From: a virus
IMG/VR virus record: IMGVR_UViG_3300047373_000579
Coordinates: 8,625 to 72,624 of that record
Length of the DNA: 64,000 bases
Strand: one strand, 5' to 3'
The notes under the pieces are model-generated. The model ran no database searches. It saw only the letters and a list, made by a program, of their open reading frames with translations, and was not told the DNA's origin. Position 1 is the first letter of the stretch. Every line of letters begins with the position of its first letter. The translations under genes and the position numbers were made by a program. Of the stretch, positions 3,419-62,829 are shown piece by piece.

Positions 3419-3820
3419 ATGAAAAAAAAAATGAAAAAAATTAAAAAAATTAGTTCTAACAATATAAAAGATATCGTTAAAGAACATTTTTTAGAAGATT
3501 CTTTATTACCTGAACATAAAATAGATACTATAATTAAAGAATACCTAAGTGAAAGAGAAGATTTTATTGATGATGATTCACCAATAAAAGATGAGTATGA
3601 GTTTAGTCCAAAAACTAGTGAGGCACTATCTGATATGGTAGATGGATTAAGTGAAATGCTTGACGACTTGGAGATAATTAAAGAGAAAGAGGGTAATGTT
3701 ATTGTTTATGATAATACCTATGCTGATGAGTATTTGGATGATATAATGAACAAATTAGAAGACTTAATGCATGATATTATGTTTTTAACTTCACTAAATT
3801 CCGATGAACAAATAGATTAA
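3419..3820 (+). CDS. Acidic protein with a basic leader (putative head-internal protein)
   Basis: N-terminus MKKIKKISSNNIKDIVKE resembles the shared leader; the body is acidic. Confidence 0.7.
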   Translation: MKKKMKKIKKISSNNIKDIVKEHFLEDSLLPEHKIDTIIKEYLSEREDFIDDDSPIKDEYEFSPKTSEALSDMVDGLSEMLDDLEIIKEKEGNVIVYDNTYADEYLDDIMNKLEDLMHDIMFLTSLNSDEQID

Positions 3821-18308: not shown

Positions 18309-18332
18309 AAAACCCCCTTTCGGGGGTGTTTT
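18309..18332. terminator. Bidirectional intrinsic terminator
   Basis: ACCCCC-tttc-GGGGGT hairpin with A and T tracts, between convergent genes. Confidence 0.8.
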
Positions 18333-21137: not shown

Positions 21138-21424
21138 TAAAAAAAGAAGAAAAAGAAAATGGGGTTATCGAATGTTTAATCGATTCCTCTAATATTTTAT
21201 TATCAGAATATAATAAATCTAAAAAAACCTTAAAAATAACATTTAAGGCGGGTACACAGTACCTTTATAAAGATGTCTTAGATAGAGACTATGTTAGGTT
21301 TGAAGTTTCTGAAAGTCAGGGTTCTGTTTTTAATAAAACAATGCGTAAGTATGAGTTTGAAAAACTAGAAAAAATAGATACTACTGAATTGTTGGAAAGA
21401 ATAGAAGAAAATAAAGGGGATTAA
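21128..21424 (+). CDS. KTSC domain protein
   Basis: DSSNI..Y..LKITFKAGTQYLYKDV..F..SESQGSVFN. Confidence 0.85.
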   Translation: MSVVKKEEKENGVIECLIDSSNILLSEYNKSKKTLKITFKAGTQYLYKDVLDRDYVRFEVSESQGSVFNKTMRKYEFEKLEKIDTTELLERIEENKGD

Positions 21425-21753
21425 GCTTTTGTATAAGCAACAACATCCATCACTTCCATACAAGGTGGTTGAGCTTCTGAATTACTTATCGCATCAACCA
21501 CAAAAATAGGTCCTTCGGTATAAATAATATATCGAAGGGTTTTTTTATCATTTTCACCATAGCCCAAAAATTTAATATTAACATTTTCAAAACCATATTC
21601 CATAAGTTTTTTACTTATTAAAGTTTTAATACCTTCACCCGTACAAGGGATGTCTTTAAGAACATTAGCCAACTCAATAGCACTAACCTCGTTAATTCTT
21701 GTTTCAGTTAGTTTATCTAACTGTGATTCTGTTAGTTTAATTATTTTTTTCAC
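21421..21753 (-). CDS. Hypothetical protein with shared leader (MKKIIKLTESQL..RINE)
   Basis: Leader shared with 38029, 39055 and 47049. Confidence 0.75.
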   Translation of the reverse strand: MKKIIKLTESQLDKLTETRINEVSAIELANVLKDIPCTGEGIKTLISKKLMEYGFENVNIKFLGYGENDKKTLRYIIYTEGPIFVVDAISNSEAQPPCMEVMDVVAYTKA

Positions 21754-22512: not shown

Positions 22513-23079
22513 TTAATCGTAATCTTCATCGTAATCTCTAGGGTCAAAACCAGACTGTCTTTTTTCGTATTCCTCTGACTCTAAACCAGATTCATATTCT
22601 CTACCTTCTTCAAAACCCCTATTATATATTATCGATTTTTGTTTTTTTATCTCATCTTCTAATTCCCCTCTCATATCAATTTTCCCATCTTCAAAACCTT
22701 CATCATAAGCCTCTTCAAGTTCATTGTCAATGTCATACTTAGCATCTATTTCACCATCATACACACCTTCTCTATAACCCTCATTATGACCTTCTTCCCA
22801 ACCCTCTCGTTGACCTGTATCTCTACCACTATCATAAATAGATTCAGAAAAATCATATAACACATCAGCCATTTCATCTAATTTTTCACCACTTAAACCT
22901 AAACGATAAATAAAGTCTACTAATTTATTTGAATCTACAAATCTTTCATGAATATAATAATCATTATCCTCTAAATTTTTTAATTTATTAGTGATTTCAC
23001 TTTTTGATGCGGGGTTGGTATTTTTAACCCAATCAAAATCATTATCTTCCTTTAATATTTTCTTAATTAAATCTTTCAT
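22513..23079 (-). CDS. Leader plus DW-motif protein with GxxxG (FliH/Yae1-like) repeats
   Basis: MKDLIKKILKEDNDFDWVKN then repeats such as GWEEGHNEGYREG. I place the start at 23079 rather than 23085 because of the promoter position. Confidence 0.75.
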   Translation of the reverse strand: MKDLIKKILKEDNDFDWVKNTNPASKSEITNKLKNLEDNDYYIHERFVDSNKLVDFIYRLGLSGEKLDEMADVLYDFSESIYDSGRDTGQREGWEEGHNEGYREGVYDGEIDAKYDIDNELEEAYDEGFEDGKIDMRGELEDEIKKQKSIIYNRGFEEGREYESGLESEEYEKRQSGFDPRDYDEDYD

Positions 23080-33739: not shown

Positions 33740-34540
33740 ATGAATTTTGGTACATTAAAAGATATATTTTGTTTAAAACTAATAGAATCTTATTCTTCTG
33801 AAGACGAAATTTCTAAAGAACACGGTAAAGATTTATATAAAAAGTTTTTAAAAACAATAAATGAAAGTGAAACATTAAAAACAGCCTTTATTGTTTTTAA
33901 GAATATTGAAACTGAGACTTTAAGTAGTGAAATCTCAGCCAATGAGTATTTAAAAGAGTCTATTAAATTATTTAAAAATAAAAAATCATTAACTAAGGAA
34001 ATCAATAAATTAACTAATTTATTAGAGAGTAATGGTATTGATTATAAAGATTCAAAAACAACAAAACTACATAGAGATATACAAAATCTAATAACTTCAC
34101 CTAGAAACATTGGGACTTTACAAAAGTTACAAGAATCTAGGGAAAGTATAACTGAGTGGTTAGTTACAGATAAAATTAAAATAAACGAAACAGAATCAGA
34201 GGAGGATTTAATTAGGAAAAATGTTGACCCTAAAAAATTCTTAAACATTGCTGTAAATAAATTTAATGAAAAATATAAAGATTCATTAAACGAAGAGGAA
34301 AAATATATATTAAAAGTTTTACGTGAAAACAATGAAGACACAATTAAAGAATTAGTGTTAAATTTAGTGAAAGAAACAGTAACCCTTGTTAATAAACATT
34401 TAAATGAGAACGGAGAAAATATTAATATTAAAGGAAAATTGTTAGAAACTAAGGACACAATATACAGAATGTCTGAAGATAACGGCAATTTTAATCAAAA
34501 TATTTTAAAATTGTATGAGTTAAAAAAGAGTTTAAATTAA
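33740..34540 (+). CDS. Helical prohead-associated protein
   Basis: 266 aa directly after the portal, with its own late motif at 33717-33724. Confidence 0.7.
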   Translation: MNFGTLKDIFCLKLIESYSSEDEISKEHGKDLYKKFLKTINESETLKTAFIVFKNIETETLSSEISANEYLKESIKLFKNKKSLTKEINKLTNLLESNGIDYKDSKTTKLHRDIQNLITSPRNIGTLQKLQESRESITEWLVTDKIKINETESEEDLIRKNVDPKKFLNIAVNKFNEKYKDSLNEEEKYILKVLRENNEDTIKELVLNLVKETVTLVNKHLNENGENINIKGKLLETKDTIYRMSEDNGNFNQNILKLYELKKSLN

Positions 34541-35568: not shown

Positions 35569-36678
35569 ATGAAAAAAGTTTTTTTAGAATACGTTTGGTT
35601 GGACGGAAATCAACCACAACAATTAAGAAGTAAAACTAAAGTAACTAGTTTTGAAGAGGTAAAAGATTACATCCATAGTGGGTTTGTTTGGAACTTACCC
35701 AAATGGTCTTTTGATGGAAGCTCAACAAAACAGGCTAAAGCCGGTAAAGGTGAAAATACAGATTGTATTTTAAAACCTGTGTTTTCTTGTAATGACCCAT
35801 TTAGAGGTGATAATCATTATATAGTCTTTTGTGAAGTCTTAAATCCAGACGGAACCTTACACCCAACAAATAAAAGAGGTGAGTTGAGAGAGTTTATGAA
35901 AAAAAATAAAATGATGGACTCTAAAGATAATCTAGAAAAATCTAATTGGTTTGGTTGGGAACAAGAATATACTTTAACCACGAAACCAAATTTTAAAGAA
36001 GGTGAAGGATTACCCCTTGGTTTTAGACCAAAAGAAGAACCTAGACCACAAGGAGATTATTATTGTGGTGTTGGAGCAGATAATATCACAGGTAGAAGAA
36101 TCGTGGAAGAACATTTAGAAAAATGTGTTGAAGCGGGTCTAGATATCTCAGGTATTAATGCTGAAGTTATGTTAGGACAATGGGAATACCAAATTGGGCC
36201 TGTAACTTCTCTTGAGGGTTCAGACCAATTATGGGTTTCTAGGTACATTTTACAAAGAGTGGCAGAGGAAAACGGAGTTAAGGTATCTTTCCACCCCAAA
36301 CCTAAAACAGGTGATTGGAATGGTTCAGGATGTCACGTTAATTTTTCAACCCCTGAAATGCGAGAAGAGGGTGGTATTGAATTAATTAAAGATTCTGTAG
36401 AGAAATTGGCTTTAACACATGACGAACATATGAAAGTTTATGGTTTACATAATGATAAACGTATGACAGGTGAACATGAAACTTCTAGTATAGACGATTT
36501 TAGTTATGGGTATAGTACTAGAGATACTAGTATTAGAATACCCGCTCAATCAAGTATCGATGGTAAAGGTTATTTTGAAGACCGTAGACCAGCTTCTAAT
36601 TGTGACCCATACAGTGTGGCATTACGTATGTTACAAACTGTATATAACGAAGTTGAAGAACTTATGAGTATTGACTAA
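35569..36678 (+). CDS. glnII: Glutamine synthetase type II
   Basis: EYVWLDG, LRSKT, WSFDGSST, WFGWEQEY, PQGDYYCGVG, GINAEVMLGQWEYQIGP, DWNGSGCHVNFST, RMTGEHET, YFEDRRPASNCDPY. Confidence 0.96.
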   Translation: MKKVFLEYVWLDGNQPQQLRSKTKVTSFEEVKDYIHSGFVWNLPKWSFDGSSTKQAKAGKGENTDCILKPVFSCNDPFRGDNHYIVFCEVLNPDGTLHPTNKRGELREFMKKNKMMDSKDNLEKSNWFGWEQEYTLTTKPNFKEGEGLPLGFRPKEEPRPQGDYYCGVGADNITGRRIVEEHLEKCVEAGLDISGINAEVMLGQWEYQIGPVTSLEGSDQLWVSRYILQRVAEENGVKVSFHPKPKTGDWNGSGCHVNFSTPEMREEGGIELIKDSVEKLALTHDEHMKVYGLHNDKRMTGEHETSSIDDFSYGYSTRDTSIRIPAQSSIDGKGYFEDRRPASNCDPYSVALRMLQTVYNEVEELMSID

Positions 36679-36686
36679 ATTAATTT

Positions 36687-37124
36687 ATGAAAAGAGGAAA
36701 AGAAATGAAGATAGAAACACCATATCAATATAACATAAAATCAGGAACAGTAGATAACAAAAATCCAAAATCAGTTTATATTCAAATATCAGCTTGGGGT
36801 AAACCTAAAGACTCTGATATCGAGGACTATGAATCTATTTTAAGGAAAAAATCTAAAAGAGTTAAAAGAAAGTTATTCGAGGTTTTAGATAATAATAACT
36901 TTTATAAAGATAAATCTATTGTTGATTTTAATATGGCTTCTTCAGGTGTTAGTTATGGAAAAAGAAGTTTTATGTCAGTGGAAGTTACTTTATTTAAAAA
37001 AGAACCATTATTACCAATAAATTCAGATAAAATGATTCCAATGGTAAAAAATATATCAGAAAAAATAATAACCGATGTTTTTGAAAAAGATGAAAATTTT
37101 AAATTTTTTAAGAAAAAAAGTTAA
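36687..37124 (+). CDS. Hypothetical phage protein
   Basis: 145 aa, GTVDNKNPKSVYI..GKRSFMSVEVTLF. Confidence 0.75.
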   Translation: MKRGKEMKIETPYQYNIKSGTVDNKNPKSVYIQISAWGKPKDSDIEDYESILRKKSKRVKRKLFEVLDNNNFYKDKSIVDFNMASSGVSYGKRSFMSVEVTLFKKEPLLPINSDKMIPMVKNISEKIITDVFEKDENFKFFKKKS

Positions 37125-37297: not shown

Positions 37298-38029
37298 ATG
37301 AAAATATTAAAACCAGGTGAAGAAGGTTATGGATTCCTAGTAGAATACGATTCTGGATTTGTATCGTCTGAACTAACCTGCCAAGATGGGGTGTGTTCAA
37401 ACCACAATTTAATTAACGAATTTAAATCAGGATTAAGTCTAGGACAAGATGGTTCTTTACCAGACAAAATAGAAATATATGCTGTACTCCAAAAATGGGG
37501 TGTAGAAAATAAAAACGGGAGAGTCTATCCCGAAGAAATCCTTAAAAGAGAGGCAAAAAGATACCAAGAATTTATTGACATGGGGACTTCACTAGGTGAG
37601 TTAAATCACCCCGAATCTTCAATTATTGATGCTGATAGAGTGTCACATATGATTTCAGAGATTTGGTGGAACGGTAGAACACTTATGGGTAAAATGGAAT
37701 TGGACACAACTCCGGGTTATCTTAAGTCAGGTATTATTTCATCTGTAGGTGACAAAGTTCTTAATATGATTAGGAAGGGTTGGACCGTTGGTATTTCTTC
37801 AAGGGGTGTTGGTTCACTTAAAAATGAAAATGGTAAGAATGTGGTACAAGATGATTTTGAATTAATTTGTTGGGATATCGTTACGTCACCATCAACTCCA
37901 GGTTCTTGGATTTCTTCAAGTGAAAAAGATTTGAAACCTTATATGGAATCAACAAAAGATAATAAAACAAAATTAGTGGTTGAGAATGACTCTGACTTAC
38001 TAGATAATTTAAATAAATTTTTATTGTAA
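37298..38029 (+). CDS. gp21: Prohead core protease (T4 gp21-like)
   Basis: NKNGRVYP, LGELNHP, VSH, GISSRGVGS, DFELICWDIVTSPSTPGS. Confidence 0.95.
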   Translation: MKILKPGEEGYGFLVEYDSGFVSSELTCQDGVCSNHNLINEFKSGLSLGQDGSLPDKIEIYAVLQKWGVENKNGRVYPEEILKREAKRYQEFIDMGTSLGELNHPESSIIDADRVSHMISEIWWNGRTLMGKMELDTTPGYLKSGIISSVGDKVLNMIRKGWTVGISSRGVGSLKNENGKNVVQDDFELICWDIVTSPSTPGSWISSSEKDLKPYMESTKDNKTKLVVENDSDLLDNLNKFLL

Positions 38030-38394
38030 TGAAAAAGAAAATAGTAAAATTAACAGAACAAGACCTAGAAAAGTTGGTCAAAAAAATCATTAAGGAAGAT
38101 GACAATTATGATGATGACAATTATGAAGCCTTTTATGAAAGAAGTCCTCAATTAGCTGATTTACATGATGAGGTTTTATATTTAACACCCGGCTTTGGAA
38201 TGGGTGGTACCGCAGGTGGTGTTGAAGTATTTGAACAAATGATGGATGCAATAGACATGGATGGTACAGAACTTTCTGATGAAGCTAAAGGAATAATTAA
38301 AAGACTTAGGTATGACCTTGGTGCTTTAGAAGGTTTCAATGAAAGAGTGGTGAAATTATATGAGGTCATCAGTGGTGAAAATCTTAGTGATTAA
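38029..38394 (+). CDS. Leader-bearing small protein (putative internal head protein)
   Basis: MKKKIVKLTEQDLEKLVKKIIKED. Confidence 0.8.
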   Translation: MKKKIVKLTEQDLEKLVKKIIKEDDNYDDDNYEAFYERSPQLADLHDEVLYLTPGFGMGGTAGGVEVFEQMMDAIDMDGTELSDEAKGIIKRLRYDLGALEGFNERVVKLYEVISGENLSD

Positions 38395-38406
38395 AATAAA
38401 TAAATT

Positions 38407-38970
38407 ATGAAAAACATTATATCAGAAAGAGAATTAAAAAGAATGGTTAAAAAAGTTGTTAGAGAAGAAAAACTAAACAACATTAACGAAGATAGAACTG
38501 ACTTTGAAATGAGTGGTGCTAGAAGTCGTAAAGATTATACATCAAACCCAAGAGAAAGAGACATCTCTTCTATGTTTGGTAAATACGCTGATGATGTTCC
38601 ACCAATAGTAATTAGATATCTAAGAAAAAATCCTGAAGCTATTGTAAAAAGATTATTTAAAATTTATGGTGAAAAAATATTTGACTATCTACCACAACAA
38701 GAAATGGAGGAAGAGTATGATTCTTATATGGATGATGTTCATGAAGATAAGGATTGGATTAAAAAAGCTGTTGAGAAACCTGGTTCTCTAAGAAAAAAAA
38801 TGGGACTTAAAAAAGACCAAAAATTAACTTCAGCTGATATTAGAAAAAAAATGTCTCAACTTAAGAAAAAAGATAAAGACCCTAGTAAAAAAGGTGTTCA
38901 AGGTTTAGGTAAAAGAGATTTAAAAACTTATAGACAATTGAATTTGGCTAAAACTTTACGTGGCTTATAA
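38407..38970 (+). CDS. Leader-bearing protein with a basic C-terminal DWIKKAVEKPGSLR domain
   Basis: MKNIISERELKRMVKKVVREE; internal VHEDKDWIKK. Confidence 0.8.
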   Translation: MKNIISERELKRMVKKVVREEKLNNINEDRTDFEMSGARSRKDYTSNPRERDISSMFGKYADDVPPIVIRYLRKNPEAIVKRLFKIYGEKIFDYLPQQEMEEEYDSYMDDVHEDKDWIKKAVEKPGSLRKKMGLKKDQKLTSADIRKKMSQLKKKDKDPSKKGVQGLGKRDLKTYRQLNLAKTLRGL

Positions 38971-39054
38971 GTATTTATATATAAGTTGCGCTGCAGCAAG
39001 CAGCTTAAGCAAAAAGCAGCAAGCAAATAAATAAAAATATAATATATAATAAAA

Positions 39055-39327
39055 ATGAAAAAAAGAATCGTAAAATTAACTGAAAATGATTTAGAAATGT
39101 TAGTTCAAAAAATCATCAAAGAAGAAGGTGAAATGTCTTCTGGTATTGAAAAGAAAACTGGTAGGATTATTGAGTTACCCGTTTTTGGTCAATTAACTAA
39201 ACAAATTAAATCTAAAAACGTGGATGAACAGGTTGAGGTCTTTATGACTTTATTAGGTCAAATGGATTTAAAAGGTAACTTTGGCATTAAACTTAAAAAA
39301 GCGATGCAAGAAAAAGGTTTAATGTAA
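39055..39327 (+). CDS. Leader-bearing small protein
   Basis: MKKRIVKLTENDLEMLVQKIIKEE. Confidence 0.8.
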   Translation: MKKRIVKLTENDLEMLVQKIIKEEGEMSSGIEKKTGRIIELPVFGQLTKQIKSKNVDEQVEVFMTLLGQMDLKGNFGIKLKKAMQEKGLM

Positions 39328-39328
39328 T

Positions 39329-39853
39329 ATGAACATTCGTAAAATCATAAAGGAAGAACTTCTTAAGGAAGTGGGTGGTTATGATGACCCAAGTGTCATG
39401 GCTCAACATGCTGGAAAGTCAATGGGAGCACTCGCTAGTAGTCATAATGATTTATCTAACTTATTAGCTGGTATAGCTAATCAAGTTATGGATAGAGCTG
39501 ATAAAAATGATATCAGTGATTCTTTAAGGGAAACATCAAAAGAAATAAATTTTTTCATAGACATTATCAAAACCGCTATAAGTGAAGTTATGGAAGATGA
39601 TGTTATACTCCAAGCTAAAAAAGTTATTAAGTCACTTAATTCTTTTAGAAGAAGAATAGATGTTCTTTCTAATTTTTCAGACTCTATGGGTAATGATGAA
39701 CAGTTTATTGAAAGGGTTAAACTTTTATTAATGGATTTAATACCTACACTAGAAGAATACGGTAAACAATTAATGACCACTAACAAAATGTTCGGTGATA
39801 GATTGTCCAATATGGGTCGTAGTTCTTTTGGTTCTGGATTTAGTTCTAACTAA
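39329..39853 (+). CDS. Leader-bearing helical protein
   Basis: MNIRKIIKEELLKE. Confidence 0.8.
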   Translation: MNIRKIIKEELLKEVGGYDDPSVMAQHAGKSMGALASSHNDLSNLLAGIANQVMDRADKNDISDSLRETSKEINFFIDIIKTAISEVMEDDVILQAKKVIKSLNSFRRRIDVLSNFSDSMGNDEQFIERVKLLLMDLIPTLEEYGKQLMTTNKMFGDRLSNMGRSSFGSGFSSN

Positions 39854-39928
39854 TACTTCACATATTAATATATTACCACTATAATTATATCTCACAAATA
39901 ATTATTAATTAAAAAAAAGTTTTAAATT

Positions 39929-40162
39929 ATGGGAGACCAAATCACAAATTTTTTCCTGGTTAGAGTAGAGTTCGAATCAATTAACGAACAAACAGGAAAA
40001 CCAAAAAAAATCAAAACACAATATCTTGTAGATTCAATGACTTGTACTGAAGCTGAGGCTAGAACTCACCAATACCTTAATGGTACAGTATTAGATTATG
40101 AAATTGTATCCGCAGTTAAATCACCAATCGAAGACGTTATCCGTGTAGAAGTACCGGCATAA
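39929..40162 (+). CDS. DUF4494-like protein (Bacteroidota family)
   Basis: FF.VRVEFE..G..KK..YLVDSMTCTEAEAR..YEIVSAV..I.DV. Confidence 0.7.
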   Translation: MGDQITNFFLVRVEFESINEQTGKPKKIKTQYLVDSMTCTEAEARTHQYLNGTVLDYEIVSAVKSPIEDVIRVEVPA

Positions 40163-40185
40163 TAATAATAAAATTGGTTAGAAAT

Positions 40186-40218
40186 AAAAAAAGACTCAGA
40201 AATGGGTCTTTTTTTTTT
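40186..40218. terminator. Bidirectional terminator
   Basis: A7-GACTCA-gaaa-TGGGTC followed by a T tract, between convergent genes. Confidence 0.8.
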
Positions 40219-40645
40219 AGTCTTGATATTCTTTAGGTAATCCCATTTCATCAGCTATTTTTTTAAATAACCCCTCATGTTCTTTATGTTTGGGTAAATC
40301 TTTTCCTACACACGCGTGAATCAATTCGTGTACAATCACCCATTTAAGGTATTCTTTATCTTCTAAAGCTTTTGGTTTAATACCCATTAAACCGTTTTTC
40401 CCATTTTTAGGGTGATTAAATCCAGCTATTTTACCATCCTCTATTTTACTATCTAGTTTAATATCTATTTTAGGTAAATCTAATTCTTTTCCTGTCACTT
40501 TTTTATAAACTTTTTTTAATTCCACCTCAATACTATTTTTTAATGTATTAATAGTCTTTAAATCATCGTTTTTTTCTTTTAAACGTAGATTTGTCATTTC
40601 CATAGAAAGACTTTCCTTAATCATTTTTTTAATAAAATCAACCAT
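40217..40645 (-). CDS. SprT-like Zn metallopeptidase with leader
   Basis: VIVHELIHA..HEGLFKKIA; N-terminus FIKKMIKES; late motif at 40652-40659. Confidence 0.8.
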   Translation of the reverse strand: MVDFIKKMIKESLSMEMTNLRLKEKNDDLKTINTLKNSIEVELKKVYKKVTGKELDLPKIDIKLDSKIEDGKIAGFNHPKNGKNGLMGIKPKALEDKEYLKWVIVHELIHACVGKDLPKHKEHEGLFKKIADEMGLPKEYQD

Positions 40646-40790
40646 ATAAAAATAAATATCACCATTTTTTAAACAAGTCCCATAAAAAAATCAAACTTTT
40701 CCACATTTATTGGATATTTATTTTAAAAACAACGCATTTTATTGCGCTGTTTTTTAATAATAATAATTTTTTAAATAAAAAAAGAAAAAA

Positions 40791-41942
40791 ATGGCTGAAA
40801 CAAGAAAGTCTATCATCGATGAAGCTTTTATGGAAGCGGAAAGTATAGAACAAGCTTTCAAAGCTAACTCAAAAGAAATACTGGCTCATACAATGGGTTC
40901 AGAAATTGAAGAAATGGTAAAGGAATCTTTAGAAGGTTCGGTAGCTTTAAACGAAGACGAAGATGATGAGAATGTTGATTTAGAGTTAGACTTAGGTTTA
41001 GACTCTGACGAGGCCGGCGAGGATGCTGGTGACGACCTTGACCTAGAATTAGGTGATGAGGATGATGAAATTGAAATGGACGATGAGGATATGGATATGG
41101 ATTCTGATGACCTTGAAATTGTAGACCTTACAGATGAAGATGACGAGACAGTAGTTAATGTTTTCAAAAAAATGGCTGACGAAGACGAAATCGAAGTTGT
41201 TCAAACTGAAGACGGGGTTGAAATCAAGGATAACGAAACTGGTGCCGAGTACAAAATAGAACTTGGTGGTGATTCTGAAATGGATGATGAAGACATGGAA
41301 GATATGGATGATGAAGATATGGAAGACATGGAAGACATGGAAGGTGAAATTGAGTATCAAATCGAATTAGATGATGAGGAAGACGAAGAAGAAATGGAAG
41401 ACGAAATGTCTGAAGATTCTAGACGTACACCTTCTAATAGAAGAAAACGTAATTTAAAACCTGCTAGTCTAAAAAACGAGTCTAAAAAACCAAAGTTCTT
41501 AAAGTTAGTAAACGAAAATAAAGTTCTAAAAAATAAAATGAGTTCAATCACGACTGAAAACGAAACTTTAAAAGAAGACTACAACAAAATGGTAGACGCT
41601 CTTAAAGAATTCAGACAAAAGTTGAACGAGGTAGCTGTTTTTAACAGTAACCTTACATATACAGTTAGATTGTTTACTGAACACACAACAACTAAAAGTG
41701 AAAAAGTTGATATCATTAAAAGATTTGACGATTCAAAGTCACTTAAAGAATCTAAGGCTACATACAAAAATTTAGTTAAAGAAATCTCTAAGACAAAGAC
41801 ACCAATTAAAGAATCAATTGATGAAAAACTTAATGAAACTAAAAGTAGTGGTTCAGCATCTGAAATAACTGAATCAAAAGTTTATGTAGACCCACAAATA
41901 GAAAAAATGAAACAATTGTGGAACTACGAATATAAAAATTAA
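40791..41942 (+). CDS. Prohead scaffold/core protein (gp22 position)
   Basis: Acidic middle, coiled coil and C-terminal QIEKMKQL, immediately upstream of the major capsid gene. Confidence 0.8.
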   Translation: MAETRKSIIDEAFMEAESIEQAFKANSKEILAHTMGSEIEEMVKESLEGSVALNEDEDDENVDLELDLGLDSDEAGEDAGDDLDLELGDEDDEIEMDDEDMDMDSDDLEIVDLTDEDDETVVNVFKKMADEDEIEVVQTEDGVEIKDNETGAEYKIELGGDSEMDDEDMEDMDDEDMEDMEDMEGEIEYQIELDDEEDEEEMEDEMSEDSRRTPSNRRKRNLKPASLKNESKKPKFLKLVNENKVLKNKMSSITTENETLKEDYNKMVDALKEFRQKLNEVAVFNSNLTYTVRLFTEHTTTKSEKVDIIKRFDDSKSLKESKATYKNLVKEISKTKTPIKESIDEKLNETKSSGSASEITESKVYVDPQIEKMKQLWNYEYKN

Positions 41943-41975
41943 AAAATAATAATAAAAAATTAAAAACCAAAAAAA

Positions 41976-43754
41976 ATGGGATATTTATTAAAATCTGGAG
42001 AAGTTGGTAATATCGGACTTAAGCACCAAAAAGCTGTTCGTGAAGCAACTGTCTCTAAATGGAACGACCTAGGATTCTTAGAAGGATTAGAAGGTCACGT
42101 AAGAGAGAACATTGCTTTGTTATATGAAAACCAAGCATCTGTTCTTATCAATGAAACTACTGACGCTGGTTCAAGCGGTTCTTTCGAGACTGTAGTTTTT
42201 CCTATCGTTAGAAGAGTTTTCTCTAAATTATTAGCTAACGATATCGTATCTGTACAAGCTATGAACTTACCAATCGGTAAATTGTTCTACTTCGTACCTA
42301 AAGCTTCTGAAAGAGTTACTGGTGCCGATGGTAAAGAAAGACACGGTGAGCCAGTTGTTACAACTTGTATCAATGATAATGTAGCTTGTGACGAAACAAC
42401 TTACTCTGATTGTGCTAAGAATCTTTATGACAGATTCTACAACGATGAGTTCTTTGACCAATCAAAAGGTGCTTTCTCAGCAGTTACAAGAAACGCAGAC
42501 CCTGTAATTTGGACGGCATGTTCTACTGGTTCTGAATTTACTGACGGTGTTTCTGCATTCGGTGGTGACGGTTCGGTTAGAACTCAAATCTTAAAATTAT
42601 GTGGTTTCAATACATCTGGAGCTGGAAGATTAACAGGACCTAACGGAAACGAAATGGATACTGAAGAGTTTTTAGCTTCTTTAGACCTTACTGTTACTGG
42701 TGACTTAGTTGATAAAGATGGTCAAGTAATTTTAGCGTCAGGTGACCAAGTTCCTTTTAGAGTTGTTACTCAAAGATATGGAAAAGGTATCGTTGATTAC
42801 GGTGATATCTGTACTCCTGATGGATGTATCTATTTAGAGGCTGATTTAACTCACCCTGTATGTGTTACTTGTGATGACGGTACTTTCGATGGTTACATTG
42901 GAGCACAATCAGGTACAACTGCTATCGTTCCTGGAGCTGGTGTAGCTAACTTAGGTGGAACTTCATTCGCAGCAGTTTGGAGACAATACGAAGACCTAGA
43001 GCTTGAATCTCAAATGGGAGAAGTTTCTTTCGAACTTGATTCTGTTACAGTATCGGTTACTGAAAGAAAACTAAGAGCTACTTGGACTCCTGAATTAGCA
43101 CAAGACGTATCAGCATTCCATAACATTGATGCTGAAGCTGAATTAACAGCTTTATTGTCTGAGCAAGTTGCAGCTGAAATCGATAGAGAAATCTTGAGAG
43201 ACCTTAGAAAAGGTGCAGCATGGCAATTACGTTGGGATTACAACGGTTATAAGAGATTACCACAATCTAACGCTTACACTCAAAAAGAGTGGAACCAAAC
43301 GTTAGTAACGGCAATCAACCAAATCTCAGCTCAAATTCACAAGTCTACATTAAGAGGTGGAGCTAACTTTATCGTGGTATCTTCTGAAGTATCAGCAATT
43401 TTTGATGATTTAGAGTACTTCCACGTATCAAACGCTTCTCCTGAGCAAGACAACTATAACATGGGTATTGAGAGAGTAGGTTCTTTATCAGGTAGATATA
43501 CTGTATACAGAGACCCTTACGCTCCAGCTAACTCAGTATTAGTAGGTCATAAAGGTAAGTCATTGTTGGATACTGGGTACATTTACGCACCTTACGTACC
43601 ATTACAATTGACTCCTACAATGTACAACCCGTTCAACTTCGTACCTGTTAAAGGTATCATGACTCGTTACGCTAAGAAATTTGTTAACAACAGATTCTAC
43701 GGACAAGTTAATGTTGATGGATTACGTACATTTGACGTGAGAGAATTAAGATAG
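41976..43754 (+). CDS. gp23: Major capsid protein (T4 gp23-like)
   Basis: LLYENQ, PIVRRVF..LANDIVSVQAM..P.G..F, RKLRATWTPELAQD..AFH.IDAEAEL, EIDREI, RGGANF, GYIYAPYVPL, GIMTRY. Confidence 0.97.
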   Translation: MGYLLKSGEVGNIGLKHQKAVREATVSKWNDLGFLEGLEGHVRENIALLYENQASVLINETTDAGSSGSFETVVFPIVRRVFSKLLANDIVSVQAMNLPIGKLFYFVPKASERVTGADGKERHGEPVVTTCINDNVACDETTYSDCAKNLYDRFYNDEFFDQSKGAFSAVTRNADPVIWTACSTGSEFTDGVSAFGGDGSVRTQILKLCGFNTSGAGRLTGPNGNEMDTEEFLASLDLTVTGDLVDKDGQVILASGDQVPFRVVTQRYGKGIVDYGDICTPDGCIYLEADLTHPVCVTCDDGTFDGYIGAQSGTTAIVPGAGVANLGGTSFAAVWRQYEDLELESQMGEVSFELDSVTVSVTERKLRATWTPELAQDVSAFHNIDAEAELTALLSEQVAAEIDREILRDLRKGAAWQLRWDYNGYKRLPQSNAYTQKEWNQTLVTAINQISAQIHKSTLRGGANFIVVSSEVSAIFDDLEYFHVSNASPEQDNYNMGIERVGSLSGRYTVYRDPYAPANSVLVGHKGKSLLDTGYIYAPYVPLQLTPTMYNPFNFVPVKGIMTRYAKKFVNNRFYGQVNVDGLRTFDVRELR

Positions 43755-43776
43755 TATAAATCTTAAACAATAACTG

Positions 43777-43804
43777 AAGGGGAACTTAATGTTCCCCTTT
43801 TTTT
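43777..43804 (+). terminator. Terminator after the capsid gene
   Basis: AAGGGGAAC-ttaat-GTTCCCCTT followed by a T tract. Confidence 0.85.
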
Positions 43805-43828
43805 ATGCTTTATTAGATATTTATTAAT

Positions 43829-45088
43829 ATGAATCTAAAAAGAATCATAAAAGAAGAAATTGACGATAGTCTAGATTGGATTAAGGATACACCAGAAGTT
43901 TCTATTGGGGGTAAAAACGGTTTACCAATAGAAAGTGTTCCTTTAGGTACCAAGATAGTAACACCTGACGGTGATGTATTCACTATAGAAGATGTTACTG
44001 GCTTTCATATGCCACATCAATTTGTGTGGGGTAGAGACTTAAAACCAGCTTGGTTGGGCCCTAAAAATGATGAGGATAATAAGAATTGGCATAACGCTTT
44101 ATGGTTACGAAGAGCAACCCCTGAAGATTTAAACGAATCTGAAGAGTTAGATTGGATTAAAGGTGTTGACACATATTATAAGGTAGAACAATTAGAAGTT
44201 GGTAAGATGTATGAGTTCATACCTGATTATTCTATCATGGGCAAATACGATGGTTATGATGATTTCCCTAATTGGGTTTCTAGTTATGAGGGTCAAAACT
44301 TTTATATTATTAAACAAGAGCCCAAACCTAGATTTCCAAAAAGTGGTGAGATTACCTTTAAACAGATTGGTAAGTCTAATAAAATGATTTACGATGGTAA
44401 ATACGTTAAACTACCATACAACGCTAGAGTATTTTTATGGGGTAAGTTTAAAGAGGTTGAAAACCCTGAATTTGTTACGGAGAATGAAGAATTAGATTGG
44501 ATTCAAGATACACAACCTGATAAAAAAGACATTCTTAATTTTAATAAAAAAATGTATAAAACAACCCTTGATTATGATGATATTAAGATAGGGGATAAGT
44601 TTATACCACCCGGTAGCCATCATATATGGACCGTTGATGATATGTATGATTGGGGTGTAAGTAGACGTGACTATCGTTTCATGGTTTGGTTAAAAAATGA
44701 TAAAGGAAGTATTAGAAGAAAAATTTATAACCGTGGTAATAAATTTCCTGGTGATTATAGGCCTTGGAGAAAAATTGTTAATGAACAAATAAAAGAATCT
44801 AATAAAGAATGGGATTGGGCTAAAGATATTACTCCTGTTGAATTGGAAGACCCTGAAGATTGGATTGGGAGGTCGTTTGGTTATGGTCCTGAAATAATAG
44901 ATGAAATGAGTGATATGGAAATAATTGAAGGTGACCATGAAGAATATTATACAATAAAAGAAATTGATGTTAATGGTAATTTATCCTTAACCAAGTACCA
45001 CCCAAAGTATGGTAAAAATCATGATAGTAGTACATCAGTTAATTTTTTAAGAGAGTATATTAGTAACGGTAGATGGGTATGGAAATAA
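43829..45088 (+). CDS. Four-module DW-repeat protein (putative polyprotein)
   Basis: Module starts IIKEEIDDSLDWIKD, LNESEELDWIKG, VTENEELDWIQD and IKESNKEWDWAKD. Confidence 0.8.
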   Translation: MNLKRIIKEEIDDSLDWIKDTPEVSIGGKNGLPIESVPLGTKIVTPDGDVFTIEDVTGFHMPHQFVWGRDLKPAWLGPKNDEDNKNWHNALWLRRATPEDLNESEELDWIKGVDTYYKVEQLEVGKMYEFIPDYSIMGKYDGYDDFPNWVSSYEGQNFYIIKQEPKPRFPKSGEITFKQIGKSNKMIYDGKYVKLPYNARVFLWGKFKEVENPEFVTENEELDWIQDTQPDKKDILNFNKKMYKTTLDYDDIKIGDKFIPPGSHHIWTVDDMYDWGVSRRDYRFMVWLKNDKGSIRRKIYNRGNKFPGDYRPWRKIVNEQIKESNKEWDWAKDITPVELEDPEDWIGRSFGYGPEIIDEMSDMEIIEGDHEEYYTIKEIDVNGNLSLTKYHPKYGKNHDSSTSVNFLREYISNGRWVWK

Positions 45089-45783
45089 GAAAAATAATAC
45101 GAGAAGAAATAGAAGACTTTAGTGACTTTGAATGGGCTAAAGGTGAAATAGAATACCCAATATATTCAATAGATTTTCTTATTGGTAAAAAGGCGTATTA
45201 TAGAGAGAATAACATGGAAGAGGTCCAAAAAACTCAAAAATGTACTATGTCAGATTTAAATAAGTCAGACTTAAATTTAGGTGAAATAAAAAATGGTATT
45301 GGTTGGACAATAAAAAAAGGTAATTTACCAGGTCCGAAGAATAGTGTTAGTATAATACTTGACAACAACAAAGGTACACAGCATTGGTTTGAAGACGATG
45401 TATTAGAATTTGTTAGGTTAGGTATTTGGGTTGTTGAGGGTGATGACGGTAAATTTATAAATGAATCAGAGGAATTTGATTGGATTAAAGATATTGAACC
45501 TGAAATCACTAATGAAAATTTTCATATGTTTTATAATAAACCTTTTTATTGGTATAGTCCCTTGAGTCCAAATAAATGGGTTACTTCTCAAGGAATGCCT
45601 AGAGTTTATTGGTTTGAAGAGTCTGGTATTCATTCAAGAGATAACGATGAGATAGCTTTGTTTTGTTATAAAGATTTTGAAAGAGATGAGTGTACGGATA
45701 TGTTCCATTCAACAGCTATTAACTATATAAAAAAAGGGGTTTTACAACACCAACCACAATTAAGTGATATTAAGGATGATTAA
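45073..45783 (+). CDS. Two-module DW-repeat protein
   Basis: IIREEIEDFSDFEWAKG and INESEEFDWIKD. Confidence 0.8.
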   Translation: MGMEIRKIIREEIEDFSDFEWAKGEIEYPIYSIDFLIGKKAYYRENNMEEVQKTQKCTMSDLNKSDLNLGEIKNGIGWTIKKGNLPGPKNSVSIILDNNKGTQHWFEDDVLEFVRLGIWVVEGDDGKFINESEEFDWIKDIEPEITNENFHMFYNKPFYWYSPLSPNKWVTSQGMPRVYWFEESGIHSRDNDEIALFCYKDFERDECTDMFHSTAINYIKKGVLQHQPQLSDIKDD

Positions 45784-46106
45784 ACACCGTTTTCAAGGTC
45801 TTCTTGTAAAATATTATAATATTCTTCCCTAAAAATTTCCCTAACTCTTTCTTCTGTCATTAAATCACTACCATTCCAAGTTATTTGATTTTCGTTTGCC
45901 TCAAAAATAACACCACCTTGACCATTTGTAACAGTAACACCTTGATATGTTGGTGTATCGGTTATTGTTGTGGTAAAGTCTACATCATAAGGAATGTTAA
46001 TTTGACCCGTTAATTCATCAATATAACCCCACTCTCTTTGTGAAACATAATAAAAAGGGGAACCATCTAGGAAACTATGTTTTGGTATTGTTTTAAAATT
46101 AAACAT
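45780..46106 (-). CDS. Hypothetical protein
   Basis: 108 aa ORF convergent with the DW genes. Confidence 0.55.
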   Translation of the reverse strand: MFNFKTIPKHSFLDGSPFYYVSQREWGYIDELTGQINIPYDVDFTTTITDTPTYQGVTVTNGQGGVIFEANENQITWNGSDLMTEERVREIFREEYYNILQEDLENGV

Positions 46107-46130
46107 ATAAAAATATATGTTTATAAATAA

Positions 46131-46158
46131 AAAAAGGAAGTCTTTCGACCTCCTTTTT
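46131..46158 (-). terminator. Terminator of 46176..46916
   Basis: Minus strand reads AAAAAGGAGGTC-gaaa-GACTTCCTTTTT. Confidence 0.75.
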
Positions 46159-46175
46159 ATGACAAAAATAGTTGG

Positions 46176-46916
46176 CTAGTCTCTCACACCCTTTTTATTC
46201 GCTAACTGTCTGTTTGTAGGACCACTCTCAAGTCTTTCGTTAATGATTTCCATTATGTCGCCACCCAACATACTGTAAACTTTCATGGCGTTTCCTACAT
46301 TCATTTGTTTGTCTTTGATGTCCCACAAAGTGATACCATCGTTTTTCTTCTTATCGTTATGAAAAGCCACTTTAGCTAAGTCATTAGTTCGATATTCAGA
46401 TTCTTTTGCTTTCTTGTCGATTACAAAAACTAGTGAACCATTTTCGGTGTACTGTTTGTAGTACTTACCGTAGTTGTTGTCTTCACTAGAGACACACCAC
46501 TTTGTTCCTTTACCGTAAAGGTTAGAACTACGAACACTTAAGGGGTATACAACTAACCAACGATTATCTTCAAATAATACTTCAGTTTCTTTCTTTTTAA
46601 CTTCAGAACGAGTAATCTTTTCTTTCGCAGTTTTAACCGCTTCAATTATATCTTGATTTGACTCGTAGGTGTAGATGTCTTTATTTTCTAATAAATTTCT
46701 TTTAGATAGGTCTTCAAAATCTTGAATAACCTCAAACATTTCCTTAAACGTTTCATTTGTCAATTCATTGTGAATCCATTCTACCCAATCAGAAGTACAC
46801 TTAATCATGAAAGGTAAGTATTTGTTGGTTTTTGTTGGGTCCATTTTTGATAAAACAGAGATAACGTCTATTAGATAATTTGGGTTTTGTGCTTTTAATT
46901 CTTTAATTTTTGCCAT
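46176..46916 (-). CDS. YGxGTKWC-domain (PcfJ-like) protein
   Basis: DPTKTNKYL..KDIYTY..RWLVVYP..YGKGTKWCVSS; paralog of the middle of 3822..6536. Confidence 0.8.
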   Translation of the reverse strand: MAKIKELKAQNPNYLIDVISVLSKMDPTKTNKYLPFMIKCTSDWVEWIHNELTNETFKEMFEVIQDFEDLSKRNLLENKDIYTYESNQDIIEAVKTAKEKITRSEVKKKETEVLFEDNRWLVVYPLSVRSSNLYGKGTKWCVSSEDNNYGKYYKQYTENGSLVFVIDKKAKESEYRTNDLAKVAFHNDKKKNDGITLWDIKDKQMNVGNAMKVYSMLGGDIMEIINERLESGPTNRQLANKKGVRD

Positions 46917-46960
46917 ATCGTTTAAAAAGTTTTTTTTTATTTATTTAATCATTAACAATA

Positions 46961-46992
46961 CAAATATAGAAAACTTTTTTTGTTCTGACAAA
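46961..46992 (-). promoter_or_regulatory. Bacteroidota sigmaA-type (early) promoter
   Basis: TTTG (46992-46989), 20-nt spacer, TATATTTG (46968-46961), matching the -33/-7 consensus. Confidence 0.75.
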
Positions 46993-47048
46993 TAAAAACC
47001 TAAAAATTTTTACACTTTCTTTGATATTTATATAAAAAGCATTTTAAA

Positions 47049-47465
47049 ATGAAAAAAAGAATAGTAAAATTAAACGAATCTGACTTAGAAAAGTTAGTTA
47101 AAAGAATTATAAAGGAAGAGGAGGATACTAAAGAAAAGAAAACTACTCTTACCAAACACCCAGCTTATCCGGCTGTAGATAGATTAGAGAGAGCTCTAGA
47201 AGACCTTAAAATGAATTTTAAAGATACCATCGCAAATGAAGTATCTGGTTCTGATGGTTATCATAGTGAAATAGATAAGTTTTCTGAAGATTTTGGTAAG
47301 TTTATTACTAAAGTATCTAAGATGAAGAGTAAAATCAATGACTATCAAATAGCGAATAAAGATAAGGAGGTGGCTGAAGCTAAGAAACGGAAAGAAAAAC
47401 AACGACAATACCAACATCATATGAGAGAAAGAGCTAGAATGGAGGGTCGTAATTATTCATACTAA
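47049..47465 (+). CDS. Leader-bearing protein
   Basis: MKKRIVKLNESDLEKLVKRIIKEE; late motif at 47024-47031. Confidence 0.8.
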   Translation: MKKRIVKLNESDLEKLVKRIIKEEEDTKEKKTTLTKHPAYPAVDRLERALEDLKMNFKDTIANEVSGSDGYHSEIDKFSEDFGKFITKVSKMKSKINDYQIANKDKEVAEAKKRKEKQRQYQHHMRERARMEGRNYSY

Positions 47466-47476
47466 AATATAATACA

Positions 47477-47725
47477 ATGAGAAGACAAGATAAACTAAAA
47501 TCAATAGAGGAAGCTAACAAAAGATTACTACAAGAAGGTTCAGGACCTGGTGGTAGAGTATCTTTTGATGTAATGATACATAAATTAACTATGGGTAAAG
47601 AATTGGGTGAACCTGATTTAAGTCAAATGGTTGATGAGGTTATAACTGATTTAAAGACATATCTAGATTATGATGTTATTAAAAAAGATGATAAAGGTAT
47701 GTCTGATACCGATAGATTAAAATAA
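47477..47725 (+). CDS. Small protein with an MRRxDK..EAN leader
   Basis: MRRQDKLKSIEEANKRLLQE. Confidence 0.75.
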   Translation: MRRQDKLKSIEEANKRLLQEGSGPGGRVSFDVMIHKLTMGKELGEPDLSQMVDEVITDLKTYLDYDVIKKDDKGMSDTDRLK

Positions 47726-47731
47726 AGTAAA

Positions 47732-48271
47732 ATGAGAAGATTTGATAAAAAATTAGTTATAACTGAAGCTAACCAAAAATTAGAAGAAAAATATCTTAAA
47801 GATAAAGGCTTATTAAAAGAAGATATTTTAGAGTTAAAACAAATGTCTAAACAAATCTATTCTTATCTAAAAAAGAAAGGTTATGAGGTTAAAATAAAAA
47901 CTGAAAAAGGTGATAAGTCTAGAGATTCTTTTAATACTAATTTAGATTTAAATGATACTATTCAGTTAGTGGTAAAAGAAGGGTCAGAAGTGGTCATGAT
48001 AGCTTTACCAGTTATTGCCGTTGTTAAGGACTTAACTGGTGATAAACAACTTCTTTCAACTACAGAAAATAAATACGGTAAGGGTTACCAAGATTGGTAT
48101 GTAAATAAAGAAGTGACTAATTATGTCAATAAATTAGGTGATGAATTAATTTCACAATTAAAATCTAAATACCCAAACATGAAACACGGTTTTGATAAAG
48201 ATGATTCTAGAATGTTTTACTTTATGAGGTTTGGTTATGGTAGAAATAAAAAGGGTGGTGACATAAAATAA
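47732..48271 (+). CDS. Protein with an MRRxDK..EAN leader
   Basis: MRRFDKKLVITEANQKLEEKYLKDKGLLKE. Confidence 0.75.
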   Translation: MRRFDKKLVITEANQKLEEKYLKDKGLLKEDILELKQMSKQIYSYLKKKGYEVKIKTEKGDKSRDSFNTNLDLNDTIQLVVKEGSEVVMIALPVIAVVKDLTGDKQLLSTTENKYGKGYQDWYVNKEVTNYVNKLGDELISQLKSKYPNMKHGFDKDDSRMFYFMRFGYGRNKKGGDIK

Positions 48272-48272
48272 G

Positions 48273-48551
48273 GTGAAAAGTTTAATCCGTAAGATATTAA
48301 AAGAAGAGTCAGACAAACAAACTGATTTAGCAAACTCCAATACTAAAGAACATAATATATGTGATGATTTTAGTGCTGAAAGTTATGAAGACTTAGTTAA
48401 CTTAATTAATAAGTCCCATGTATCTAAGGAAGACCACGGTAATATAGAAAAATTATTAGATGACTTAAAAAAAGAAATGAAAATTTTAGGTACTGATAAA
48501 GATTTAATTAATACCTACCAACATAAAATTGCGAACCAACTATGTAAATAG
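48273..48551 (+). CDS. Leader-bearing small protein (GTG start)
   Basis: MKSLIRKILKEE. Confidence 0.75.
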   Translation: MKSLIRKILKEESDKQTDLANSNTKEHNICDDFSAESYEDLVNLINKSHVSKEDHGNIEKLLDDLKKEMKILGTDKDLINTYQHKIANQLCK

Positions 48552-56905: not shown

Positions 56906-57586
56906 TTAATCATCATTTAAAATAGACGCTATCTTACTTAAGGTATTAGAGTCAATCTCTTTAATGGTTTTAAACCTCATTTTATTTTGGTTAAAGTCTT
57001 TATTATAGTCTTTGTCAATTATAATACTTACTTTACCATTAGGTTTTTTATCTATTATTTTTGGGTGGTCTGTCACCATAACATCAACATAATCCCAAAC
57101 CTTACCATACTCAGTAACAAACTTTATATTAGGACAAGTAGATTTTGTTTTTGCTAAGAAGAATAGGGTAGAAGGTATTGCCATGCCACCCTCTCTACTC
57201 ATTAAAATAAATTCGTGTTGTGGGTTGTCTAATATTAATTGGTTTAGGGTTTCTACAGCCGAACTAATAGATTCTTCAGCATAACCAAAAATCTCTACCG
57301 TACACCTTTCATATAAAAATTCATCTAAAGTAACTTTATCTTTTACTTCAGTCAATTCAGTTTCTTCTTTAGATTCTAAAAAAGATTCTTCATCAAAATC
57401 AGGGTTAAACTCCATCTCACCTTGTTTAACTTCTTCTTCAGGAAAAGTTACCCATTTATCTAGTTCATAATCAGAGACCTCAATCTCCTCCTCACCTTCT
57501 ATGGTTGGGAAGTATTTTAAATGAGTTTCTTTTACTTGTCCTAAGAAATCTCTTAAAACACCATCTATTGATATACCTATCTTCAT
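56906..57586 (-). CDS. HAD-fold 5'(3')-deoxyribonucleotidase-like protein
   Basis: MKIGISIDGVLRDF..ILMSRE..VDVMVTDHP..DYN. Confidence 0.7.
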   Translation of the reverse strand: MKIGISIDGVLRDFLGQVKETHLKYFPTIEGEEEIEVSDYELDKWVTFPEEEVKQGEMEFNPDFDEESFLESKEETELTEVKDKVTLDEFLYERCTVEIFGYAEESISSAVETLNQLILDNPQHEFILMSREGGMAIPSTLFFLAKTKSTCPNIKFVTEYGKVWDYVDVMVTDHPKIIDKKPNGKVSIIIDKDYNKDFNQNKMRFKTIKEIDSNTLSKIASILNDD

Positions 57587-58371: not shown

Positions 58372-58383
58372 AAATAAAATATA

Positions 58384-59319: not shown

Positions 59320-59321
59320 AA

Positions 59322-60359: not shown

Positions 60360-60361
60360 AA

Positions 60362-62737: not shown

Positions 62738-62829
62738 ATATCTCCTTACATAAGTTATATAATTTATAATCAATTTCATTTTTTTCCTTAAATAATGAAA
62801 TAGTTTTGGGTGTTTTTACGTATAATATG

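Follow-up and report, generated by a model that had tools for sequence, protein, structure and literature searches.

We analyzed a 64-kb stretch of viral DNA (hereafter the window), part of a single 72.6-kb virus contig with a GC content of ~31%, in which approximately 13 otherwise unrelated proteins begin with a shared leader peptide. CheckV estimates the contig to be 22% complete, and its near-complete relatives are 295–298 kb in size; it thus represents a fragment of a jumbo phage, and its putative source is an uncultured T4-related phage of roughly 300 kb. The window carries a T4-like head module composed of the following genes:

29658-31517: large terminase (PHROGs match)
31833-33692: portal (PHROGs match)
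37298..38029 (+): prohead protease of the T4 gp21 family, 243 aa (PF03420 Peptidase_S77 and identity with T4 gp21)
40791..41942 (+): acidic scaffold protein (36-orthologue alignment)
41976..43754 (+): major capsid protein of the gp23 family, 592 amino acids (aa) (PF07068 Gp23, E 4e-72)

We found that the protease matches the Pfam family PF03420 Peptidase_S77 with 97.6 bits (cut-off 27; E 8.6e-28) and T4 gp21 with 35% identity over 167 aa (E 6e-28). The capsid protein shares 30% identity with T4 gp23, and its nearest cultured relatives, those of Microcystis phage Mel-JY01 and Flavobacterium phage immuto, are 41–42% identical over 55–60% of the protein. The leader-bearing genes and candidates of the window, referred to below by a coordinate from this list, are:

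38029..38394 (+): 121-aa protein with a 23-aa long leader (38029-38097) and an acidic body; profile 51.7 bits
38407..38970 (+): 187-aa protein whose diverged long leader ends VVRE; profile 10.4 bits, residues 4-28
39055..39327 (+): 90-aa protein with a long leader; profile 48.8 bits
39329..39853 (+): 174-aa protein whose short leader ends LLKE, ahead of VGGYDDP; seen in the N-terminal sequence
40217..40645 (-): SprT-like protein of 142 aa, N-terminus resembling a short leader (..FIKKMIKE then S); profile 1.8 bits, weak
43829..45088 (+): 419-aa protein with a short leader and four modules; sequence, junction motif and model
45079..45783 (+): 234-aa protein with a short leader and two modules, same junction as 43829; sequence
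47049..47465 (+): 138-aa protein with a long leader; profile 48.1 bits
47477..47725 (+): 82-aa protein with a class-2 leader (MRRQDK...RLLQE); sequence
47732..48271 (+): 179-aa protein with a class-2 leader (MRRFDK...GLLKE); sequence
48273..48551 (+): 92-aa protein with a short leader and a GTG start; profile 9.9 bits, residues 3-17
21421..21753 (-): 110-aa protein, N-terminus resembling the long leader and ending RINE; profile 21.4 bits, positions 1-15 only
22513..23079 (-): 188-aa protein with a short leader, then an FDWVK junction; profile and junction motif
3419..3820 (+): weak candidate (..DIVKE, residues 18-22); best profile match at residues 86-93, not at the N-terminus

The leader profile combines 56 distinct leaders, taken from the window and from its relatives, and was run on 93 chosen open reading frames (ORFs) of the contig. 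The N-termini quoted in the initial annotation of this DNA are all present at their coordinates, and of the ~14 leader proteins that it had counted, ~13 carry the leader, but 3419 is weak and shows no N-terminal profile match. We distinguished three near-identical long leaders of 23 residues (38029, 39055 and 47049), which score 48–52 bits, and a short form of 9–14 residues corresponding to profile positions 14–28, i.e., to the last third of the long leader. The short form is found in 39329, 43829, 45079, 48273, 23079 (-) and 40645 (-), as well as in two genes upstream of the window; besides the copies in the window, the contig has three leader copies upstream of it. In the long leader, a basic strand (KK-I-V-K-L) would precede an amphipathic helix (TESDLEKLVKKIIKE), of which the short form retains only the end. 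Of the 14 best profile matches in the 93-ORF proteome, 13 lie at the N-terminus, and the frequency of the tetrapeptide [ILVM][ILVM][KRNQ]E is 0.72 per 100 aa within the first 30 residues vs 0.16 elsewhere. Leader genes make up 11/16 genes within 38029-48551 vs 3/60 elsewhere in the window (Fisher p 2e-7).

The bodies behind the leaders had been described as unrelated, and a body-vs-body blastp comparison of 17 proteins indeed gave no match at E ≤ 0.001; five marginal matches (E 0.003–0.009) fell mostly on a shared junction motif discussed below. Pfam and PHROGs give no family for the window leader proteins, 38029 included, apart from one sub-threshold SprT-like match of the protein 40217..40645 (-) (25.2 bits, just below the cut-off of 25.6), which also contains a HELIH motif. 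If the capsid-targeting reading developed here is true, this putative zinc protease would be a packaged protease. Among the relatives, an orthologue of 38407 (L009:10759) retains the leader, and 39055 has six orthologues among the relatives' loci. Between leader genes 38407 and 39055, and within AT-rich surroundings, lies a GC-rich repetitive stretch (38975-39050, ..gcagcaagcagc..aagcagcaagc..), which could be a terminator or an RNA element.

All leaders of the window end with hydrophobic-x-Glu. According to the parts of PMC9026906 on which we draw, T4 gp21 cuts after L/I-X-E, exchange of the Glu for Asp prevents processing in T4, and the gp23 propeptide of T4 is 65 residues long; in the T4 record, FLTE occupies gp23 residues 62–65. 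The capsid protein of the window contains, as pointed out in the initial annotation, the sequence LINE ending at residue 60. This candidate maturation site (residues 57–60, nucleotides (nt) 42144-42155) is kept as L-[IL]-x-E in 44/44 full-length relatives and is directly followed by an indel-rich stretch. In turn, the scaffold protein has four [ILV]-[KT]-E-S sites (residues 43–46, 318–321, 339–342 and 359–362), which are invariant in 36/36 orthologues. The tetrapeptide [ILVM][KNT]ES occurs 19 times in the proteome vs 6.3 ± 2.4 times in residue shuffles (maximum 13 in 200) and is concentrated in the scaffold and in the junction proteins, with the scaffold showing the highest tetrapeptide density in the proteome. 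The same kind of site recurs wherever the protease should act, which supports the link to the protease. We also considered whether the scaffold mimics the leader: its EIEEMVKESL sequence resembles the leader by eye, yet the scaffold is absent from the 40 best leader-profile matches, and the idea was dropped. A 767-aa protein without family encoded at 24537-26840 (+) reads ..PVIKE then S at residues 17–21, and its acidic stretch matches the scaffold (29.5% identity over 200 aa, E 1.6e-10), a similarity that composition alone might explain. This protein is a further candidate for processing in the head.

We confirmed 418 IMG/VR relatives of the protease and examined 80 of their loci. The strict long-leader pattern was detected in 71 genes in 81 sources, in 66 of them no more than 15 residues from the ORF start and in the others behind upstream alternative start codons. 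Their bodies form 12 blastp clusters, six of which are conserved orthologue sets found in 6–16 loci each. Where protease identity is at least 65%, a long leader lies within 10 kb in 39/41 loci, and the other two loci end at the protease gene. It was found in 0/39 loci with a ~50% identical protease (L042-L080), in which the protease gene directly precedes the scaffold and capsid genes; here, eight genes just past the capsid gene begin with a short MKxLIKKLLRE-type peptide (e.g., L048:14127, L079:14589). The second leader class (MRRxDK...), which the initial annotation had recognized at 47477 and 47732, is present there and totals 9 genes in 4/81 sources, always N-terminal and on different bodies; a more distant relative, L045, has two such leaders.

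The leader proved to be portable between bodies, as far as these comparisons go. The body of 39329 (..VGGYDDPSV..) has a short leader in the window and the full long leader in two relatives (L008:5974 and L016:13076), and together with the 12 body clusters and the breadth of public matches given below this fits the expanded, portable signal proposed earlier. Within the 47049 family, mean pairwise identity is 0.72 for the leader vs 0.40 for the body, and a variable-length acidic stretch directly follows the Glu. Such shuffling of bodies behind a common start would also be produced by conservation at the nucleic-acid level, i.e., by a shared translation-initiation region or a gene-shuffling recombination module with the peptide as a by-product, and AAA-rich starts (MKK..) are common in AT-rich phages. 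However, the three long window copies differ pairwise at 12–14 of 69 nt (17–20%) and both their upstream and downstream flanks are unrelated. Out of 23 codons, 5–9 have changed synonymously and 4–5 have changed mostly conservatively, so that the peptide is kept. Synonymous drift within unrelated flanks argues for selection on the peptide and against recombination or an RNA element; leader copies also exist in frame inside proteins. We thus regard a nucleic-acid origin of the similarity as highly improbable.

A 32-position leader profile was searched over 1.84 billion representative proteins (50%-identity clusters), of which 4,108 clusters match at E ≤ 0.001 and 21 at E ≤ 1e-10. The details that follow refer to the best 150 of the 4,108 matches. 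Protein lengths range from 27 to 410 aa, and the leader starts within residue 12 in 145/150; four more have a Met directly before the leader and can therefore be considered over-extended gene calls. These proteins contain 166 leader copies, in which the last residue is E in 164 and the next residue D/E/S/Q in 144, while the residue two before the terminal Glu is I in 150 and I/L/M/V in all 166. The earlier statement that similarity stops right after the Glu is borne out by 130 sequences, in which information content is 2.3–4.3 bits per position inside the leader and falls to ~0.3 bits within four residues after the Glu; only the sharpness of this edge is informative, because the sequences were chosen by profile and the height inside the leader is partly selected.

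These data bear on a second alternative, in which the leader would escape cleavage and, independently of the capsid, act as an N-terminal interaction helix, serving for docking or oligomerization of cytoplasmic phage proteins (host-takeover or anti-defense functions) or acting as a tag for a Clp-like ATPase. The predicted amphipathic helix, the dispersal of leader genes in near-complete relatives, and the dark bodies (only 1/56 leader proteins of at least 120 aa reaches the Pfam cut-off, with DUF3008) would all suit such a role, and the contig does encode an 822-aa Clp-type AAA+ ATPase (18331-20799, -; phrog_4871, E 1e-263). This explanation seems nevertheless quite unlikely, as it accounts neither for conservation that ends exactly on a Glu fitting the motif of the phage protease, nor for the invariance of the same motif in the scaffold and the capsid propeptide. 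It also leaves unexplained the variable, low-confidence linker after the leader and the hydrophobic-x-Glu that often precedes internal copies.

As for its distribution, the leader is essentially confined to virus contigs. With narrow leader patterns, one genome each of 185,579 prokaryotic species yielded a single locus on a metagenome-assembled genome (MAG) contig of 4.6 kb. This contig (L167 = CAYHAI010000036.1, 4636 bases), binned into a Planctomycetales MAG, is probably mis-binned viral DNA. Among the nine long records found via the leader alone, eight contain PF03420, and the one miss is a 59%-complete fragment. Neither immuto nor Mel-JY01 has this leader; both possess other N-termini ending in hydrophobic-x-Glu. 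Within the paper library searched, no paper on this leader came up, and none of those on capsid targeting sequences concerned this clade.

Apart from N-terminal leaders, we observed a second, in-frame internal leader copy in 17 of the 150 best public matches, several of these 17 proteins being mutually related. In 10/17 cases another hydrophobic-x-Glu is seen by eye within ~8 residues before the internal copy (e.g., LFE then N, LAE then S, ILE then N), and it looks as if an internal leader could be excised from both sides. Three of the internal copies begin with Met and are therefore possibly fused gene calls.

A related arrangement is found in the module proteins of the contig. The junction [ILVM]-x-E-x(2-5)-[FLW]-[DE]-W-[IVAM]-[KQR] is present in 14 copies in seven contig proteins, including 43829, 45079, 23079 (-), and, upstream of the window, a protein of 947 aa. 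Each junction in 43829 reads [ILV]-x-E-x(2-5)-[LW]-D-W-[IA]-[KQ], and across the module proteins (43829-45088, 45079-45783, 22513-23079 (-), and L083, contig bases 1-8700) we also noticed the form hydrophobic-x-E-S-(acidic)2-(F/L)DW(I/V/A)(K/R). At the N-terminus, the short leader itself forms the portion that leads up to the Glu. Comparison of 39 homologues of 43829 revealed that modules are gained, lost, and reordered around an almost fixed junction, and that two homologues have added a Phage_lysozyme domain (PF00959, T4-type). The junction module proteins could constitute a polyprotein-like cargo, with every junction serving as a cut site. The AlphaFold model of 43829 has a mean predicted local distance difference test (pLDDT) score of 59.7, with the leader and the junction at 320–334 below 50. 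Three of its four modules (1, 3 and 4) are beta-rich, with means of 10-residue blocks mostly of 64–93. A fold search of this model against PDB gave no match at E ≤ 0.001 and only weak matches to small beta-barrel domains of the EF-P/eIF5A type. The model of 47049 (mean pLDDT 75.9) shows a leader helix at residues 10–27, residues 24–34 below 50, and a body folded as a helical hairpin. Both models fit an exposed cut site, low pLDDT being no proof of disorder.

We further found that the motif ATATTTAT occurs in 27 copies in the window vs 14.8 in shuffles, a number reached by 1/100 shuffles, and that 20 of the 27 copies lie no more than 70 nt, mostly 11–27 nt, upstream of a chosen ORF on the same strand. 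At 11–27 nt it precedes the terminase, portal, and protease genes (23 nt for the last) and the leader operons 43829 (12 nt), 47049 (25 nt), 22513 (-) (~11 nt) and 40217 (-) (14 nt); most other leader genes closely follow a ATATTTAT-preceded gene on the same strand. ATATTTAT is promoter-like and may be a late promoter. The initial annotation had placed leader genes mostly behind a late motif, and the leader operons of the window do follow ATATTTAT. In two near-complete relatives, G001 and G002, 8 leader genes were confirmed by pattern: ATATTTAT or TATTTATA is found 23–26 nt upstream in 4 and TATAAATA at -52 in one, whereas the 80 nt before the remaining 3 contain no such motif.

Taken together, the leaders are best explained as N-terminal capsid-targeting propeptides of the T4 type that would be removed by the gp21-family protease, an interpretation to which we assign a probability of roughly 60%. 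Every sequence-level test that might have spoken against a capsid-targeting role came out in its favor, and the suggestion made initially finds support in the co-occurrence of a gp21-family protease, a gp23-family capsid protein, and a motif shared with the leaders, as well as in the portability of the leader, the position of its genes behind the promoter-like motif, and its near absence from cellular genomes. Core binding, cleavage, presence in the virion, and ejection into the host are steps that we infer by comparison with T4. During prohead core assembly, the leader would hold the attached protein in the scaffold core. The activated protease would then cut after the Glu of the terminal [ILVM]-x-E, so that the body would be freed inside the head and the leader peptide lost. 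The same protease would cut the capsid propeptide after L-I-N-E(60) and the scaffold at its conserved [ILV]-[KT]-E-S sites, and probably also the module proteins at the [ILV]-x-E-S..(F/L)DW junctions and at internal leader copies.

In an alternative explanation, the leader proteins would themselves belong to the prohead core, analogous to T4 gp67 and gp68, their shared N-terminus being a co-assembly helix; they would then be degraded together with the scaffold and nothing functional would be delivered. Several leader genes directly follow the protease gene, just as T4 gp67 and gp68 adjoin gp21, and the leader proteins are small and helical. The acidic body of 38029 resembles the gp67 tail, T4 gp67 itself contains ..DLIKEE.., and half of the 12 body clusters are conserved across 6–16 loci. 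Yet the same leader is found on 4,108 clusters with very diverse bodies, some of them far from the head module, and also on multi-module proteins, one relative of which has a lysozyme domain. Variation of this kind is not expected of a dedicated core part, and for the leader proteins as a whole this explanation seems unlikely.

Several observations nevertheless weigh against capsid targeting. The case for packaging and cleavage is drawn entirely by analogy, and the leaders have no detectable homology to the T4 sequences, only the MK start and the hydrophobic-x-E end being alike. Hydrophobic-x-Glu is a short motif and the proteins are rich in Lys, Glu, and Ile, so single sites weigh little; moreover, a profile test for similarity between leader and scaffold found none. 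The clustering by head genes emphasized in the initial annotation holds for the window, but in G001 and G002 six profile matches each are spread over 150–235 kb and do not lie by the head genes. The counts of co-occurrence come from one clade and are thus not independent events. Among cultured phages, megablast of the region gave no match, and in a collection of 50,697 records tblastn of the 419-aa and 138-aa proteins and of a 36-aa leader-bearing public match gave no usable one. The ATATTTAT motif is only about twice as frequent as in shuffles, with its late-promoter role being presumed. Finally, some small leader proteins beside the protease are conserved orthologues; instead of being variable cargo, these could belong to the prohead core, as gp67 and gp68 do in T4.

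More speculatively, a single label in its 23-residue, short, and junction versions might be the common loading and cutting signal of a large clade of ~300-kb aquatic T4-related phages, directing thousands of unrelated dark proteins to the capsid, some of them beads-on-a-string polyproteins that the head protease would split into modules, and all of them forming a large, fast-evolving arsenal of injected effectors; we put this forward tentatively, as a possibility rather than an expectation.

Other genes of the window include a glutamine-synthetase-like gene located between the portal and protease genes at 35569-36678 (+) (Gln-synt_C, E 3.8e-19; Gln-synt_N, E 9e-10). Two uncharacterized genes, 33740-34540 and 36687-37124 (+), keep their position in the portal-protease interval in all relatives inspected, and the former has two [ILVM][KNT]ES sites. 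A sugar-modification block at 57583-62779 (-) comprises a PhoH-like gene, three nucleotide-sugar epimerase/dehydratase-like genes (phrog_540), and a methyltransferase-like gene.

If the capsid-targeting reading is true, a leader or junction ending in hydrophobic-x-Glu marks proteins of a large group of uncultured aquatic phages that ride in the capsid and probably enter the host, which would provide a first functional handle on thousands of unannotated protein families. It would further allow prediction of the cleavage specificity of a gp21-family protease distant from that of T4 and suggest a polyprotein-style cargo, which is absent from the descriptions of T4 in the parts of PMC9026906 used here. 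The leader, longer than the T4 capsid targeting sequence (CTS) and very strongly conserved, would also be a candidate tag for bringing foreign proteins into phage heads, a use to which the CTS is already put.

The principle of targeting propeptides has been known since the work on T4, with P1 DarB and giant phages as further precedents. T4 internal proteins carry N-terminal CTSs of 10–19 residues, which, as the relevant part of PMC9026906 describes, hold them in the core until removal by gp21; the sequence is present on IPI, IPII, IPIII, and Alt, from which gp21 removes it (Mullaney and Black, 1996, as cited in the portions of PMC9026906 and PMC5694885 on which we draw). The T4 record gives MKTYQEFIAE for both IPII and IPIII, whereas the form on IPI has 19 residues. 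Like the T4 CTS, the leader described here is N-terminal, common to otherwise unrelated proteins, and ends in hydrophobic-x-Glu; gp21-, gp22-like, and gp23-family head genes are present in this phage, and the short form (9–11 aa) matches the CTS in size and in its hydrophobic-I-x-E end. Given the lack of homology to the T4 internal proteins, it is therefore to be viewed as an analogue within a homologous head system and not as an orthologous peptide. With 4,108 clusters at 50% identity, the leader is also much more widely distributed than the T4 CTS, and its targeting and cleavage are predicted from sequence. In T4, gp67, gp68, and gp22 (with several L/I-x-E cuts) resemble the present system in that small helical or acidic proteins lie beside the protease and the scaffold has multiple conserved motif sites, whereas our leader proteins differ in having a large number of unrelated bodies and occur also far from the head module.

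Among giant phages, phiKZ, 201phi2-1, and SPN3US are likewise large, have a gp21-related protease that cuts after Glu, and contain many processed internal proteins, and gp53 and gp54 of SPN3US share an identical N-terminus in front of diverged bodies. In contrast to our leader, their motif is S/A-x-E, their propeptides often exceed 100 residues, and no single short leader common to multiple families figures in the sections of PMC5694885 and PMC9026906 from which these comparisons are taken. For DarB of phage P1, the N-terminal 30 residues suffice to bring a reporter inside the capsid, and its cargo is believed to reach the host cell; P1 is unrelated, and the pertinent part of the account describes neither a leader shared by a family nor a cut motif of the gp21 type (PMC9024508). 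An encapsulin-type cargo-loading peptide was considered and rejected, as the signal described here is N-terminal and ends on a protease motif, and the shell is that of a tailed phage with portal and terminase. Encapsulin cargo-loading peptides are usually C-terminal and bind to the inside of an HK97-fold shell without the involvement of a protease. Compared with T4, the present system differs in the 23-residue strand-plus-helix main form with its nested short form, in the coexistence of three leader classes, and in the scale on which the leader has spread; the in-frame internal leader copies (17 proteins) and the beads-on-a-string proteins with a cut motif at their module junctions are new.

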